Virus record (IMG/VR): IMGVR_UViG_3300037762_000578
Location: 1-24,009 of that record
From: a virus
Taxonomy: Duplodnaviria; Caudoviricetes
Direction: 5' to 3' (one strand)
Length of the DNA: 24,009 bases
Shown: one piece after another, positions 1 to 23,603 of the stretch
Numbering within the stretch: the stretch's first letter is position 1
Layout of the letters: each line of letters opens with the position of its first letter
Notes under the pieces: generated by a model
Seen by the model: the letters and a program-made list of their open reading frames with translations, nothing else
Told to the model about the DNA's origin: nothing
The model's database searches: none
Made by a program: the position numbers and the translations under genes

Positions 1-564
1 ATGTCGGCGGCCACGCAACCGATCGCGGTGATCGCGAAGCTGCTCGATCTCTCGGAGCGCCGGGTGCAGCAGCTGAGCCGCGAGGGCGTGATCCCGAAGG
101 CGACGCGCGGCCAGTATGACCTGATCGGATCGGTGCGCGGCTATGTCCGCTATCTCCGCGACCAGGCGGCGCGGGCGCAGGCGGGCGCGCCGGACTACGC
201 CTCCGAGCGGGCCCGCTTCATCCGGGCGCGGGCCGATCTCGCCGAGATGGAGGCGGAACAGCGGCGTGGCGCGCTGATCGCCGCCGAGGATGTGGAGGCG
301 GCGTGGATCGCGGTCCTGGCGCTTCTGCGCACCCGGCTGCTGGCGCTGCCGGACCGGCTCGCGCCGCTCGCCTTTGAACAGTCAACCGTCGGAGACACCC
401 GGAACCTAATCCGCGCCGTCCTTCGCGAGGTGCTCGATGATCTCGCGGAGACCGATGTCCGATCCGAACCCGACACTGACCCTGACGGGATCGGCGATCC
501 TGCGGCGGACGGTGAGCCGGGCGCTGGCGGTGCTGCGGCCGCCGCCGGAGCTGACGATCAGTGA
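1..564 (+). CDS. Terminase small subunit (lambda Nu1-like)
   Basis: N-terminal HTH (IAKLLDLSERRVQQLSREGVIP), a coiled segment (ERARFIRARADLAEME), and overlap with the TerL start. Confidence 0.88.
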   Translation: MSAATQPIAVIAKLLDLSERRVQQLSREGVIPKATRGQYDLIGSVRGYVRYLRDQAARAQAGAPDYASERARFIRARADLAEMEAEQRRGALIAAEDVEAAWIAVLALLRTRLLALPDRLAPLAFEQSTVGDTRNLIRAVLREVLDDLAETDVRSEPDTDPDGIGDPAADGEPGAGGAAAAAGADDQ

Positions 565-1021
565 CTGGGCGGATGCCAACCGGCGGCTGAGCTCGGAGGC
601 CAGCGCCGAGCCCGGCCAGTGGCGCACTGCCCGCGCCGAATACCAGCGCGGGATCATGCAGGCGATCTCGGACGCCGGCACCGAGAGCGTGGTGATCATG
701 TCCTCGGCCCAGGTCGGCAAGGCGCTGGCGATCGATACACCGATCCCGACGCCGGAGGGCTGGACGACGATGGGCGCGCTGCAGCCCGGCGACGTCATCT
801 TCGACGAGACCGGCGCGCCGTGCCGGGTCACCGCCACCACCGGCGTGATGCTGGACCGTGCATGCTACCGGGTCCGGTTCTCGGACGGCAGCTCGATCGT
901 CGCCGATGCCGATCACCTTTGGTCGGTGCAGTCCGATACCGTGGTGCCCGGACACCGCCTGATGGGGGACCGCCTTGATGAAGACCCATCGGGCGGTTCT
1001 GACAACGAGGGAGATAGCTGA
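455..1021 (+). CDS. Terminase large subunit (gpA family), N-terminal part, plus N-terminal intein fragment
   Basis: gpA motifs PPPELTISDWADANRRL and PGQWRTARAEYQRGIM, then Walker A SSAQVGK followed by the intein start ALAIDTPIPTPEGW. GGAG at 447-450 favours ATG 455 over 437. Confidence 0.88.
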   Translation: MSDPNPTLTLTGSAILRRTVSRALAVLRPPPELTISDWADANRRLSSEASAEPGQWRTARAEYQRGIMQAISDAGTESVVIMSSAQVGKALAIDTPIPTPEGWTTMGALQPGDVIFDETGAPCRVTATTGVMLDRACYRVRFSDGSSIVADADHLWSVQSDTVVPGHRLMGDRLDEDPSGGSDNEGDS

Positions 1022-1955
1022 AACAGCGCATTGCCGTGGCACGAAACCGAGAAACCGGTACGCGATCCCGGTGGCCGGGTCGCTCGATCTTCCCGAGGCG
1101 GACCTGCCGATCCCGCCATACATGCTTGGCGTCTGGCTCGGCGATGGGCACAGCTACGGAACCCAGATCACCGCGCATCGCAGCGATCTGGAGATCGCGG
1201 ATCATCTGCGCGCTTGCGGTGTCGAGATCGCGGTCGAGCAGAAGGACAGAAGGTTCGCGGACGTTCTGTGCCTGACGCCGTCGTTGCCCTGGCCGGCCCA
1301 TGTTTGCCGCCGTGGTCACGACATGAATGTTCCGGGTCGCTATACGAAAGGCCAGTGCGCCGAATGCGCACGACAGGCGGCGATGAAGTGGAAGCACGAT
1401 CGTCCGCGCGATGCGGTCCGTCCCGGCGCGGTCTCGTTCTTTCGACGTCTCACCGCGATGGGACTGATCAAGTCGCGCAAGACCCCGGAGACCGGCAAGC
1501 ACATCCCGGCGATCTACCTGCGGGCGTCGAGGGACCAGCGCCTCGCCCTCCTGCAGGGGCTGATGGACACCGACGGGCATGTCGGCCGCAATGGCCGGTG
1601 CGAGTTCGTGACGATCTATCCGCGGCTGGCGGACGGGTTCGGCGAGCTGCTGGCGACGCTCGGCATCAAGTTCACCTCCGCCGAGCGACAGCCGATGGCG
1701 GTGATCGACGGCGAACGCCGCCCGGGCAAACCGGCGCGCCGGTTCTCGTTCATGATCTACGACGACACCCCGGTGTTCCGGCTGTCGCGCAAACGCGCGC
1801 GACAGGTGTCGCGAGACGGGCGGCGTACGACCGAGACGGAACGCCGCCGGATCGTCGCGGTAGAGTCAGTGCCGAGCGTGCCGGTGAAGTGCATCCAGGT
1901 CGACAGTCCGAACCGGCTCTACCTCGCCGGCCGGGCGATGATCCCGACCCACAAC
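722..1955 (+). mobile_element. Class 3 intein with LAGLIDADG homing endonuclease, interrupted by a frame break between 963 and 1021
   Basis: Block A starts with Ala (722). Block B DADHLW (Trp 920-922), block C PYMLGVWLGDG, block E LLQGLMDTDG, block F VKCIQV (Cys 1890-1892), block G IPTHN then +1 Thr (1956). Removing it restores AQVGK-TEMLNN. Confidence 0.92.
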
Positions 1956-3668
1956 ACCGAGATGCTCAACAATGCGGTCGGCTACCACATCGACCAGGAT
2001 CCGGCGCCGATCATGGTGGTGATGCCGACCGAGCGCGACGCCGAGACCTGGTCGAAGGACCGGTTCTCGCCGATGGCGCGCGACACACCGTGCCTGACCG
2101 GCAAGATCGCTGACCCCAGGTCGCGCGACGGCAACAACAAGATCCTGCACAAGCGGTTTCCGGGCGGACATCTGACGATTGTCGGCGCCAACGCACCCTC
2201 GGGGCTGGCGAGCCGGCCGATCCGGCTCCTGCTCTGCGACGAGGTCGACCGCTACCCGTTCAGCGCCGGCGCCGAGGGCGACCCGGTGAACCTGGCGAGG
2301 AAGCGGACGGTCACCTTCTGGAACCGCAAGATCGTGCTGGTCTCGACGCCGACCAACCGGGGCGCGAGCCGGATCGAGGCGGCCTGGGAGGAGAGCGACC
2401 AGCGCCAATTCCATGTGCCGTGCCCGGTGTGCGGCACCGAACAGGTGCTGACCTGGCCGCAGGTGCGCTGGGACAAGGACACCGACGGCACGCACCGGCC
2501 GGAGACCGCGCGCTACCACTGCGTGGACTGCGATGCGGGATGGCGTGACGAGACCCGCTGGGCGGCGGTCGGCCGGGGCCGCTGGATCGCCAACCGGCCC
2601 TTCGCCGGGATCGCGGGGTTCCACCTGAACGAGATCTACTCGCCCTGGGTGCGGCTCGAGGCGATGGTGCGGGCGTTCCTCTCGGCGCGCGCCGGCGGGG
2701 ACCAGGCGATGAAGACCTTCGTCAATACCTCGCTCGGCGAGAGCTGGGTCGAGACCGGCGACGCGCCGGACTGGCAGCGGCTGGCGGACCGGCGCGAGGA
2801 CTGGCCGGCGGGCACGGTCCCCGCGGGCGGTCTCTTCCTGACCGCCGGCGCCGACGTGCAGAAGGATCGCATCGAGGTCGACGTCTGGGCCTGGGGCCGC
2901 GGATTGGAAAGCTGGCTGATCGATCATCTGGTCCTTGAGGGCGGGCCCGGTGATCCGGCCTGCTGGCAGGCCCTGACGGACCTGCTCGGCCGGACATGGG
3001 CGCATGCCTGCGGCCAGCACATGACGCTGGCGCGGCTCGCGATCGACACCGGTTTCGAGACCAGCGCCGTCTATGCCTGGTCGCGGCAGGTCGGCTTCGC
3101 GCAGGTGGCGCCCGTCAAGGGTGTCGAGGGCTTCAACCGGGCGAGCCCGGTGACGGGGCCGACCTATGTCGATGCCACCATCGCCGGCAAGCGGCTCAGG
3201 CGTGGCGCGCGGCTCTGGACGGTGGCGACCTCGACCTTCAAGGCCGAGACCTACCGGTTCCTGCGGCAGGGTGAGGCGGAACCGTCGCCCCGGTGGGGCG
3301 GCGAAAGTCCGCCGAACGCCGACGCCGCCGTGTGCCCGCCCGGCACGATCCATCTGCCGGACTGGGCCGATGGCGAATGGCTGAAGCAGCTGACCGCCGA
3401 GCAGCTGGTGACGGTGCGCACGAAGCGCGGCTTCGCCCGGCTCGAATGGCAGAAGCTGCGCGAGCGCAACGAGGCGCTGGACTGCCGGGTCTACGCCCGC
3501 GCCGCCGCCTGGATCGCGGGCGCGGATCGCTGGCCGGAGGCGCGATGGCAGGAGTTGGAGCGGCAAATGGTTGTCGAGACGGAACCGCCGAAGAATGCCC
3601 TGCAGCCGGCATCCCGCAGGGCTGCGCCGGCGCGGCGGCGGTCGGTGCGATCGAGCTACATGGGGTGA
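975..3668 (+). CDS. C-terminal intein part (endonuclease and splicing blocks) plus terminase large subunit ATPase/nuclease
   Basis: After THN: TEMLNNAVGYHIDQDPAP, Walker B LLLCDEVDRY, VSTPT, CPVC/CVDC, nuclease LTAGADVQKDR and RNEALDCRVYA. Start is TTG 975 or ATG 978, preceded by GGGGGA. Confidence 0.9.
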   Translation: MMKTHRAVLTTREIAETAHCRGTKPRNRYAIPVAGSLDLPEADLPIPPYMLGVWLGDGHSYGTQITAHRSDLEIADHLRACGVEIAVEQKDRRFADVLCLTPSLPWPAHVCRRGHDMNVPGRYTKGQCAECARQAAMKWKHDRPRDAVRPGAVSFFRRLTAMGLIKSRKTPETGKHIPAIYLRASRDQRLALLQGLMDTDGHVGRNGRCEFVTIYPRLADGFGELLATLGIKFTSAERQPMAVIDGERRPGKPARRFSFMIYDDTPVFRLSRKRARQVSRDGRRTTETERRRIVAVESVPSVPVKCIQVDSPNRLYLAGRAMIPTHNTEMLNNAVGYHIDQDPAPIMVVMPTERDAETWSKDRFSPMARDTPCLTGKIADPRSRDGNNKILHKRFPGGHLTIVGANAPSGLASRPIRLLLCDEVDRYPFSAGAEGDPVNLARKRTVTFWNRKIVLVSTPTNRGASRIEAAWEESDQRQFHVPCPVCGTEQVLTWPQVRWDKDTDGTHRPETARYHCVDCDAGWRDETRWAAVGRGRWIANRPFAGIAGFHLNEIYSPWVRLEAMVRAFLSARAGGDQAMKTFVNTSLGESWVETGDAPDWQRLADRREDWPAGTVPAGGLFLTAGADVQKDRIEVDVWAWGRGLESWLIDHLVLEGGPGDPACWQALTDLLGRTWAHACGQHMTLARLAIDTGFETSAVYAWSRQVGFAQVAPVKGVEGFNRASPVTGPTYVDATIAGKRLRRGARLWTVATSTFKAETYRFLRQGEAEPSPRWGGESPPNADAAVCPPGTIHLPDWADGEWLKQLTAEQLVTVRTKRGFARLEWQKLRERNEALDCRVYARAAAWIAGADRWPEARWQELERQMVVETEPPKNALQPASRRAAPARRRSVRSSYMG
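3275..3319. repeat. Imperfect palindromic element within the TerL coding sequence
   Basis: Stem CGTCGCCCC-GGT-GGGGCGGCG (3283-3303) with outer GGCGGA...TCCGCC, followed by GAACGC. Confidence 0.55.
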
Positions 3669-3675
3669 GGGATGT

Positions 3676-4287
3676 TCAGTGCCACGGCCTCTTGCCGGTC
3701 CTGTGGCTCTTGAGCGGGCCGCGGCGCCGCGCCGCGAAATCCTCGAGGATCATGCGCACATGCCGCTCGTCGATGTCGACGGGATCGAAGGATCCGCCGC
3801 ACCATTCGAGCATGCGGTCGTGCTCCTCGTGGTGCGGATCGCCGATCGCTTCGAGGAATTCCTCGAACCCGGTCGTTCCGCCCACGTCCTCGGGCGGCGC
3901 GCGCCGGGCGCCGCCGACGAAGGCCGGGTATTCGATCTCGGCCTCGCCCTCGCGCATGTCCTCGATGGTGATGCGGTGCCGCCAGTTGTCGCCGAAGTCA
4001 TAGACGTAGAGGAACTGCCGGACCCCGCGATCGATCAGGGTCGCAAGCCGGATGCCCTTCGCCTTGAAGACCTTGCGCTCGTACATGACGTCATCGGGAT
4101 GTGGTTCGCCATAGACCCGCTCGCCGATCACGAATTCGAACAGGTGATAGTCCTGCCAACGCATCGCGACCTGAATGATGTCGTGCAGAGCGAACAAGGT
4201 CGCGGACAGCGGCACGTCGACGGCCCGCCAGACCGGAGGCTCGGTGCCGTCCAGCTCGATGCGGATGCGGGCGACGGGCTCGATCAT
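3676..4287 (-). CDS. Plasmid pRiA4b ORF-3 family protein (moron)
   Basis: Motifs PPVWRAVDVP, LHDIIQVAMRWQDYHLFEF, YVYDFGDNWRHRI and RRAPPEDVGG. Antisense to the late operon. Confidence 0.9.
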   Translation of the reverse strand: MIEPVARIRIELDGTEPPVWRAVDVPLSATLFALHDIIQVAMRWQDYHLFEFVIGERVYGEPHPDDVMYERKVFKAKGIRLATLIDRGVRQFLYVYDFGDNWRHRITIEDMREGEAEIEYPAFVGGARRAPPEDVGGTTGFEEFLEAIGDPHHEEHDRMLEWCGGSFDPVDIDERHVRMILEDFAARRRGPLKSHRTGKRPWH

Positions 4288-21917: not shown

Positions 21918-23135
21918 TCAGGATCCGCGCTTTCGAACGAAACCAGCAATCTCGTCCGCGATTTCTTCATTGTGGCCAAGCCAGATGTGACCGCCTGATG
22001 GATACATTACCAGCTGCCCCGACGGCGCACGTTCAGCGATCGTGCGCGCCGTCTCCGCGGTCCCGAACCGATCGTCCTCGGCCGAGACGACCAGCATTGG
22101 CGTGGCGATGGCGGGTAGGTCAATATCTGCGGGCCGACCAGAATAGCGCCCGTCGTTCAACATGCCGCGACTGCGTTGGTTGATCGGCATCAGCTCCGCG
22201 AGGATGAGAAATGCGCGCTCCCGCTCGTCTGCCGACACCGTCTCCAACAGCGACGGGTCGGTGGCCAGAAGCGTGCCGATCAGCTGCCTCGGCGCGAGCT
22301 TGAGCATTGTCCAGAACCAGGCATCCGAGGAGAGCAGCCTGTCGACGAAGAAGCGTTGCAGAGCAGTGAACTGGACGGGATCCTCACCCGTGAGGTTCAT
22401 CGCCGGGACGAGGAGAACCAGTTCCGAGCATCGGTCTGGATGCCGCAGCGCGAACTGCGCCGCCGGGAGCGCCCCGGCCGATCCACCGGCAACTGGCAGC
22501 CGATCGATCTTCAGGTGATCGAGAAGCTCTGCGAACGCGTCTGCCTGGTTCGCGGGTGAAGCATCCGCTGGAAAATCGCTGCGAAGGTATCCGAACCTTG
22601 ACGGCGCGATGACCTCGAAGTCCCGCGCAATCAGCCCCCGCCCGAACCGCAGGCCCTGGTCGAAGCCGCCGCCCGTGCTGGTTGATCCCGTGGTCGTCGC
22701 CGTGCCCGCCTCCTTGACGGTCACGGACTGCGCCGCGAAGGCGAGCGAGACGGGCTCCACCAGCCAGGTGGTGATGCCGTTGTCACCGTCATAGGCGACC
22801 GAACGGACGGTGACCGTGCGGGTGCTGCCATCGGCCAGGGCGAGGGCGTAGCTCTGGCCGAGGCGGATCCCGGCAAGGCTGCCGGGGAAGCTGGCACGGG
22901 CGAGGTCGCCTTCCGAGCCCGTGGCCGCGGACATGCCCGCCACCGTGCCGAGGAGGGTCTCGGCGCCGGCGCCGGTGCCCTTGCCCGACCGCGCCGCGCC
23001 GGTGGCGATCGACCAAGCGGTGCGGTCGTCGACCCGGATCTCGCGGATGGCGTCGACCGGACCGTGGCAGAGCGCGAGATGGGCGCCGAGCGAATAGCGG
23101 TAGCCGACGGTCTGCTTCTTCGAGCTACCGCCCAT
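21918..23135 (-). CDS. Chimeric ORF: phage tail protein N-terminus fused to an alpha/beta hydrolase
   Basis: N-part MGGSSKKQTVGYRYSLGAHLALCHGPVDAIREI. C-part TGGGFDQG, APSRFGYLRS, nucleophile elbow GGSAG, SAEDD and GGH. Junction near 22680. Confidence 0.75.
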   Translation of the reverse strand: MGGSSKKQTVGYRYSLGAHLALCHGPVDAIREIRVDDRTAWSIATGAARSGKGTGAGAETLLGTVAGMSAATGSEGDLARASFPGSLAGIRLGQSYALALADGSTRTVTVRSVAYDGDNGITTWLVEPVSLAFAAQSVTVKEAGTATTTGSTSTGGGFDQGLRFGRGLIARDFEVIAPSRFGYLRSDFPADASPANQADAFAELLDHLKIDRLPVAGGSAGALPAAQFALRHPDRCSELVLLVPAMNLTGEDPVQFTALQRFFVDRLLSSDAWFWTMLKLAPRQLIGTLLATDPSLLETVSADERERAFLILAELMPINQRSRGMLNDGRYSGRPADIDLPAIATPMLVVSAEDDRFGTAETARTIAERAPSGQLVMYPSGGHIWLGHNEEIADEIAGFVRKRGS

Positions 23136-23358
23136 CGCTCGCCTCGCTCTCCTCGTGCTCGCCCGCCTTCGCCTCCCGCATCCGGGCCTCCGCCGTCACC
23201 CGGAAGGCGAGCGCGTCGCCGGTGGCCTCGAGCCGCTCGGCCTCGATGCCGTTCGCGACGAAGGTCTGCCAGTCGAGCCCGTGGCGGCGGAACCAGGGCC
23301 GCGCGCCGCCAAAGCAGATCCTGGCGGCGCGGAGGTCGCGAGGGTAGACACGCGTCAC
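23125..23358 (-). CDS. Small phage tail-tip module protein
   Basis: CFGGARPWFRRHGLDWQTFVANGI motif; overlaps both neighbours. Confidence 0.75.
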   Translation of the reverse strand: MTRVYPRDLRAARICFGGARPWFRRHGLDWQTFVANGIEAERLEATGDALAFRVTAEARMREAKAGEHEESEASDGR

Positions 23359-23603
23359 TTCTTGCCGCCCTTCTTGCGGATCGGCTCGACCTTGAGGTCG
23401 CCGGCCCAGACAACGTTCGGCCCGCGCAGGAGCACGGTGCCGAAGACCACGGGGATGGGACTGCCCTCCTCGGCGGTCGGCAGGTCGAAGTCGTCGAGCC
23501 CGGCGGCCTTCGGCGGCTCGAGCTTCGGCTTCGGACTCAGCGCATAGGAGATCGCCATCAGCGCCAGGCTGACGACGATCTGGATCACGAAGTTCCAGAC
23601 CAT
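23355..23603 (-). CDS. Small phage tail assembly protein
   Basis: Hydrophobic N-terminus, then PTAEEGSPIPVVFGT...PNVVWAGD...IRKKGGKK. Confidence 0.78.
   Translation of the reverse strand: MVWNFVIQIVVSLALMAISYALSPKPKLEPPKAAGLDDFDLPTAEEGSPIPVVFGTVLLRGPNVVWAGDLKVEPIRKKGGKK

Follow-up and report, generated by a model that had tools for sequence, protein, structure and literature searches.

A large terminase gene broken inside its class 3 intein: a probable naturally split, trans-splicing element that keeps its LAGLIDADG nuclease

Is a phage gene for the large terminase subunit (terL) that is broken into two open reading frames (ORFs) inside its intein a damaged gene or a naturally split one? The question is raised by the IMG/VR virus record IMGVR_UViG_3300037762_000578, of which positions 1–24,009 were analysed (the window, 24,009 nt), a lambda-like head, tail and lysis region whose terS, portal, protease, capsid, tail and peptidase genes match PHROGs. 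Its terL lies on the + strand as an N-ORF (437/455–1021, ending in ...DRLDEDPSGGSDNEGDS-TGA) and a C-ORF in the +1 frame (975 (TTG)/978 (ATG)–3668), the two overlapping by 47 nt counted from TTG 975 and by 44 nt from ATG 978. The C frame is closed upstream by TGA at 960–962 and GGGGGA stands at 964–969; a note made by a model from the sequence alone (the original prediction) had described the two ORFs with their 47-nt overlap, the break in the intein after block B and both of these elements, and its coordinates were confirmed. The intein begins with Ala1 at 722, directly after AQVGK, and its last residue, Asn, ends at 1955, so that an element of 1,234 nt is inserted between the Lys and the Thr of the TerL Walker A motif. 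Its splicing residues were placed at 914–922 (H65/W67), 1890 (C305) and 1947–1955 (THN), with Thr+1 at 1956. The break cuts the Pfam gpA ATPase profile into positions 1–44 on the N-piece and 40–247 on the C-piece, which also holds the gpA nuclease and LAGLIDADG_3 domains. As judged from sequence comparison, this class 3 intein is probably split naturally, at a new site, and spliced in trans, and it likely still homes.

Scans of viral, genome and metagenome collections returned 169 loci, 170 with the window, some DNA being held in two collections. The same +1 break was found in 46 of the 170, while 119 loci are contiguous and five lack the N part, and at every split locus the offset lies just after intein block B. 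Identity in the C-terminal intein half (IntC, its N-terminal partner being IntN) is at least 66% for all 46 split loci and at most 49% for all 119 contiguous ones; close homologues are thus far from being all contiguous, since every evaluable locus at or above 66% is split. There are 29 distinct split junctions, to which later analyses added four, and isolates of Thalassobius vesicularis, Seohaeicola saemankumensis, Thalassovita autumnalis (two copies), Marivivens geojensis and Defluviimonas sp. carry the split form, the cultured hosts being Rhodobacteraceae. A block-B pattern search that did not presume the break gave 29 loci, 25 split and four contiguous. The original prediction had raised the recurrence of the break and its ribosome-binding site (RBS) in independent genomes, as well as the reads over 955–1025: both features recur, the site resembling a Shine–Dalgarno (SD) sequence being conserved in the junctions, and contigs from 8/8 sequencing runs bridge the junction with no indel listed, although these are assembled contigs, X1 may be the source of the window and the runs may come from few campaigns.

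The intein has the sequence hallmarks of class 3. Position 1 is Ala, not Cys, Ser or Thr, in 31/31 distinct split inteins; the WCT triplet, W67 (B12), C305 (F4) and T324 (G5), is invariant and aligns with 6RIX and 6BS8, class 3 inteins that are also the closest solved structures; and invariant H325 and N326 precede a nucleophilic Thr+1, present in 31/31 split rows. It also has the make-up of a natural split, with a Hint domain in two ORFs, each fused to one extein and conserved in independent genomes. The model of IntC (predicted local distance difference test, pLDDT, 89) has PI-SceI as its best fold match (E 5e-10), and in this IntC-only model residues 1–9 form no strand. In the model of a contiguous relative (pLDDT 93), strands 66–71 and 87–92 flank loop 72–86 (pLDDT 77–79); the loop after block B spans 10–40 aa in 62 contiguous loci and about 7 in 6BS8. 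The break falls in this loop, and therefore IntN ends with block B whereas IntC supplies the partner strand, the TTxEI helix, the nuclease and blocks F and G. The triad of Mch DnaB1 is Cys, His65 and Thr (PMC7664689; all papers are cited from their accessible parts), and since a Cys–His65–Thr triad spans both chains here, activity would need assembly of the halves.

The original prediction also pointed to the acidic end of the N-fragment and the basic start of the C-fragment, natural split inteins such as DnaE being known to associate through charge complementarity. We rejected charge complementarity as weak evidence, because the acidic N-tail is mostly the −1 reading of conserved TTxEI codons, is nearly neutral in its own frame (ratio of nonsynonymous to synonymous substitution rates, dN/dS, pooled pairwise over 27 distinct loci, 0.67; 20/22 codon changes alter the residue at +21..+41), and because 62 contiguous relatives are already charge-asymmetric (N-part acidic, mean −6.5, and C-parts basic). 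What stands of that interpretation, as the best-supported reading of the sequences, is a natural split in which trans-splicing would rebuild the Walker A GK/T; its charge argument does not, nor does its claim of no precedent, taken up below.

The start of the C-ORF is conserved, as are the signals around it; the G5 run as such is not. Among 29 junctions the start codon is ATG in 27 and TTG in two; conservation falls on ATG 978, TTG 975 being missing in most relatives. At 13 nt upstream of the ATG the codon is always purine-only (AGG 18, GGG 6, AAG 6, GGA 1; 31 in total), AGG making up 6% of Arg codons elsewhere. Mean pairing energy with what we take to be the anti-SD motif is −6.0 kcal/mol, against −1.8 at 694 internal ATGs, 3% of which reach the median value. 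Just 5′ of the ATG, codon changes alter the residue in 10/21 cases in the N frame versus 16/19 in the C frame, and 3′ of it in 28/34 and 20/22 versus 15/36 and 5/20; the frame under selection thus switches from N to C at start codon 978. Start codon, SD site and frame switch, all conserved, would fit independent translation of the C-piece. The N-ORF stop is retained in 26/29 junctions and lost in L083/L084/L093, where tails continue for 41–53 codons; the T that creates it changed once on the tree, compared with a mean of 5.6 at 68 four-fold sites, 2/68 of them as low, this being a single site chosen post hoc. A candidate 12-pair hairpin over the SD and start (−22.3 kcal/mol, z −3.5 in the window) is not significant in 11/12 junctions folded, although its pairing is kept in 95.6% of cells versus 28–58% in slid controls, the window's own register uncounted. 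As RBS-covering hairpins and coupling regulate phage nucleases (PMC2988022), we entertain translational coupling as a hypothesis.

The alternative that survives best, though we regard it as unlikely, is a programmed +1 ribosomal frameshift, or a bypass, giving a single contiguous precursor that would splice in cis. The N-frame codon at −13, where the possible hairpin begins, can re-pair in +1 strictly in 7/30 junctions and by first-position wobble in 18/30, and matched ATG codons stand at −16 and 0 in 22/30. However, the −13 site is missing in 5/30 and the matched codon in 8/30, no nucleotide run at the junctions exceeds 6 nt, the stretch between −13 and the ATG is conserved in the N frame and not in the C frame, and the start codon varies only between ATG and TTG. 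With the N-stop itself missing in 3/29 junctions, no shift at the stop is needed. Frameshift, slippage, −2 shift and bypass sites were looked for, but no such site occurs in every one of the 30 junctions, and a strict +1 re-pairing site is present anywhere in 11/30.

Nor is the split terL a dead gene, because the C-ORFs are mostly open (in 47 loci, 32 full length, 12 open to the contig end and three damaged or chimeric) and both halves are under purifying selection. The dN/dS is 0.087 for the N-extein, 0.108 for the IntN core, 0.124 for the post-break Hint part, 0.109 for the nuclease, 0.043 for the intein end and 0.082 for the C-extein, and A1, D62, H65, W67, D56, D199, C305, T324, H325 and N326 are invariant in 31/31 distinct inteins. 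The original prediction had seen the splicing residues and TerL motifs as apparently intact; dN/dS is 0.04–0.12 in all core segments. These values bear on a second, improbable alternative, that of a selfish nuclease by which each invaded terminase is killed: the prophages would then be dead or depend on a helper, and the exteins would owe their conservation to the intact alleles that were invaded. Consistent with it, 7/10 host genomes searched hold another gpA-type match (the split gene is the sole gpA-type terL found in 3/10, Marivivens geojensis and Thalassovita genomes among them), 3/47 loci are damaged, and no cultured phage with the split form was found, the 496 phage records matched all being below 60% identity and no plasmid record above 60%. 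Yet conservation of IntN and the splicing residues matches that of the nuclease (dN/dS 0.108 and 0.043, catalytic residues invariant), and IntN has no nuclease motif, so its conservation could not be inherited from invaded alleles whereas that of the exteins could; the head, tail and lysis genes of the window, moreover, are open and match phage families.

In L169 and L315 an internal deletion leaves a C-ORF of 154 aa in which the intein start is joined to the terL end; this is a dead allele that retains the split junction. The insert between the two LAGLIDADG motifs (1305–1367, C-x3-H...C-x2-C) has C110, H114, C127 and C130, which like D56 and D199 are invariant in 31/31, all six together; alone it has no Pfam match, the shorter relatives P0052/P0068 are without it, and it is possibly metal-binding.

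It is very improbable that the halves associate without splicing and act as a two-chain terminase: phages do have nuclease-split genes without inteins, Aeh1 nrdA and T4 gene 39/60 (PMC2988022), but here the insertion parts the Walker A Lys from its Thr, and no variation is seen in the nucleophiles C305, Thr+1 and N326. The remaining alternative, a sequencing error or recent one-base insertion in the window genome, has next to no probability despite the G5 run at 964–968, since the same offset recurs, at a single position, in dozens of prophages related to this one (29 distinct junctions, the G run being absent from most, isolate genomes and contigs of 8 runs), and together with the purifying selection on both halves this excludes the error or recent inactivating mutation that the original prediction had held equally compatible.

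What the original prediction missed is the apparent mobility of the element. Intein-less terminases 72–88% identical to the C-extein are common, and on an extein tree of 31 split and 109 empty alleles there are 23 label changes (shuffled mean 28.4), at least 11 of them forced by strong branches; this patchy distribution is observed directly. Split alleles share QVGK/TEMxNN-type flanks, and the difference between a split allele and the empty allele closest to it is 45% at residues +1..+10 and 4% at +31..+200, compared with 21% and 6% for empty–empty pairs. Ten pairs were profiled for conversion tracts. L016/L018 differ at 9/1,234 intein nt and are identical over 129 nt upstream and 62 nt downstream, after which they diverge; L005/L013 differ at 20/1,234 with a similar tract pattern, which recurs in L006/L013, a pair that is not independent. 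As expected of a mobile LAGLIDADG element, both motifs are intact, D56/D199 are invariant and dN/dS is 0.109. These comparisons suggest patchy spread with co-conversion of the flanks, with recombination a less probable explanation, and the element likely still homes between phages.

Intein-less alleles are unusually diverse at the insertion site, with 42% pairwise difference at +1..+10 versus 19% further on and variants such as QIGK-SESIL, QTGK-TETQL and QCGK-SEVQL (P0257-P0370, L226-L288), a diversity that might reflect escape from the nuclease. Two prophage terL genes (L086, L091) in a single Thalassovita autumnalis genome each carry the split intein and differ by 11.7% in intein DNA.

The break may extend to deeper lineages, in which the tails of predicted N-pieces from other samples correspond to the −1 reading of C-piece starts at the protein level, over 39 residues in P0184/P0007 and 28 in P0163/P0010, whereas unrelated N- and C-piece pairs fit at most three residues in the same frame test. 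The loop lengths inferred at this level (58, 61, 64, 70 and 76 nt) are all 3n+1, which keeps the +1 offset. DNA for P0007, P0009 and P0010 was not found in three viral scans, one of which covered 33/64 parts, so these lineages rest on protein-level frame tests; the tails of P0193, P0189, P0232, P0235, P0229 and P0162 did not pass the +1 motif test and were not counted as split. All 11 split rows lie on one side of the IntC-only tree (support 68), and once IntN is added the window, the Rhodobacteraceae loci and P0007 form a strong clade (98/96). The contiguous P0052/P0068 are 68–69% identical over the last 47% of IntC, yet fall outside the split core clade; one single-origin analysis omitted hits aligned over <250 residues, among them P0052/P0068, and the tree with IntN added these two but skipped eight contiguous proteins and two loci. 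One origin with re-fusion, or repeated splitting, may each explain these trees, both being compatible with them. The split itself likely began as a frameshift within the loop for which an internal start compensated, and not as the invasion of the gene by a free-standing nuclease. P0162, a 154-aa N-piece with six members, has a different, shorter tail after block B that stops before the motif test could complete, and may be another split lineage.

In the explanation that we favour, a naturally split and trans-splicing intein, ribosomes would make TerL-N with IntN (~189 aa) and re-initiate at ATG 978, in a step perhaps coupled via the SD hairpin. IntN and IntC would then pair through the two strands of the β-hairpin after block B, and since the break lies in the variable loop of that hairpin, H65/W67 of IntN would meet C305/T324/N326 of IntC. 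C305 would attack the Lys/Ala bond, Thr+1 take over the N-extein and Asn cyclise, rebuilding the Walker A GK-T. IntC, with its LAGLIDADG nuclease, would cut intein-less terL, and repair would copy the whole 1,234-nt element including the overlap. Several observations weigh against this account. The homing-like pairs are selected cases, taken from the extreme ends of a set of 351, the one-sided tract of L005/L006 is explained by plain recombination, intein and extein distances correlate overall (Spearman 0.66), and genome G001 has an empty allele with a similar, uninvaded target beside a split one. Covariation in the hairpin does not exceed that of column shuffles (85 and 61 of 500 shuffles reach it), and the weak +1 re-pairing site at −13 is present in 25/30 junctions. 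With IntN added to the tree, split P0010 groups with contiguous P0012/P0013 (99/97; approximately unbiased test p 0.085). Finally, a natural intein split at this loop is absent from the literature found, so that splicing competence is read from conservation.

The nearest known system is AceL NrdHF (Hoffmann et al., PMC7891396), a class 3 intein that is split naturally, is likely of phage origin and likewise has Ala1 and an internal Cys nucleophile on IntC. Its existence contradicts the prior statement that no natural split class 3 intein is described, although a canonical nuclease kept on the C-fragment was indeed not found in the literature; according to the accessible text of the same paper, none of 1,701 class 3 inteins in nr has a split form. 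AceL NrdHF splits 98/48 aa at the usual nuclease site, with an MCT triplet and a separate GIY-YIG gene between its halves, whereas the window intein is split after block B (67-aa core plus loop / 326 aa), with canonical WCT, overlapping genes and LAGLIDADG inside IntC. The fractured genes of Dassa et al. 2009 (PMC2677866) are similar in being two-piece phage enzyme genes, a terminase among them, joined by split inteins, with overlapping frames and hairpins before nuclease-coding regions. Their break was made by a free-standing GIY-YIG or Vsr-like nuclease gene, and all natural splits in that account are at the nuclease site except one terminase, broken after motif N1; in the window, by contrast, no inserted gene is seen, the halves overlap by 44 nt, the nuclease is in frame within IntC and the break comes after block B. 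The atypical AceL-TerL, GOS-TerL and Cat inteins (PMC11766414) are also natural non-standard splits, of the terminase large subunit, but have an IntN of 25–30 aa, an IntC of ~104 aa without nuclease and an N-terminal nucleophile, unlike the class 3 window intein with its other split site and full nuclease. Msm DnaBi1 (6BS8) and Mch DnaB1 (6RIX) have H65 and W67 at the same positions as the window intein but are contiguous cis mini-inteins; Msm DnaBi1 splices in trans when cut at 94/95 (PMC10559147), an engineered split at the nuclease loop and not after block B. Canonical split inteins of the DnaE and gp41-1 type, broken at the nuclease insertion site and with a short nuclease-free IntC, do not fit either, and gp41-1 tolerates seven engineered cuts in IntN (10.1101/2023.01.30.526203). 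For actinophages, a preprint on their inteins notes a split one in phage Zeenon (10.1101/2025.01.02.630785).

No natural split after block B, and no canonical LAGLIDADG kept on IntC, was found in the literature as far as its accessible parts go, including PMC10559147, PMC11766414, PMC3834826 and PMC5009743; subscription papers and supplements, such as the intein lists of PMC7891396 and 10.1101/2025.01.02.630785, could hold one. Within the literature searched, the split site, the canonical nuclease on the C-piece and the apparent mobility are new. A review distinguishes three configurations, full-length, mini and split (PMC7765530), and the accessible texts place the origin of split inteins at the nuclease site, through decay of the nuclease or invasion by a free-standing one, and at a late stage of the intein cycle. 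We lean slightly towards a fourth, full-length and split at once: a frameshift-cut mobile class 3 intein with a separately, perhaps coupled, translated LAGLIDADG half, homing through Rhodobacteraceae prophages and splitting each terminase that it enters, whose halves may have re-fused in P0012/P0013. If the favoured reading is right, a tolerated frameshift in a Hint loop is a third route to split inteins, by which the element stays mobile; a natural split site lies after block B; the literature found then has two natural split class 3 families, AceL NrdHF and this one; and trans-splicing has a new geometry, with both nucleophiles on one chain. Cultured hosts carry the split element, so it is testable there. 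Annotation pipelines call the two pieces unrelated or partial terminases, and such cases are therefore easily missed.

Table 1. Positions of terL, its intein and the junction signals in the window
Feature	Position	Strand	Evidence
Terminase small subunit; overlaps start of terL-N	1–564	+	phrog_57, E 1e-28
TerL N-extein, ends in Walker A ...SSAQVGK; in-frame ATG also at 437	455–721	+	PF05876 positions 1–44; dN/dS 0.087
IntN core: Ala1, block A, block B with D62, H65, W67	722–922	+	class 3 inteins 6BS8/6RIX, E 1e-22/6e-21
N-ORF remainder: 18-codon loop, acidic 14-residue overlap tail, TGA 1019–1021	923–1021	+	
SD-like purine run, 8 nt 5′ of ATG	964–969	+	purine-only codon; anti-SD energy
Candidate mRNA hairpin over SD and start codon	966–1000	+	folding
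C-ORF start codon, conserved	978–980	+	ATG 27, TTG 2 of 29 junctions; selected frame switches here
IntC, 326 aa: last N-terminal Hint elements (strand, TTxEI helix, YAIP strand), LAGLIDADG nuclease, blocks F and G	978–1955	+	
Two LAGLIDADG motifs: LGVWLGDG (D56), LQGLMDTDG (D199)	1125–1577	+	PF14528
Cys/His insert between LAGLIDADG motifs: C110, H114, C127, C130	1305–1367	+	
Class 3 catalytic end: C305 (F4), T324, H325, N326, then Thr+1	1890–1958	+	aligns to 6RIX/6BS8
TerL C-extein: remaining gpA ATPase and nuclease domain	1956–3668	+	PF05876, PF20454; dN/dS 0.082, first 430 codons

Elsewhere in the window, a pRiA4b ORF-3-like gene (PF07929, E 2e-62) lies on the opposite strand at 3676–4287 (−), between terL and the head–tail adaptor, and a second tail cassette remnant (phrog_1180, 1196, 1101), its last ORF fused to an alpha/beta hydrolase, follows the lysis genes at 21918–23603 (−). 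Inside the terL C-extein, an in-frame palindromic insert at 3269–3335 lengthens a loop from ~16 to 24 residues. The stability of its stem-loop is not above that of shuffles, the same insert is present in intein-less P0257, and 46–48-nt copies, 85–92% similar, occur in L012, L167, L230, L251, L263 and L275; it may be a repeat like the repetitive extragenic palindromic (REP) elements.

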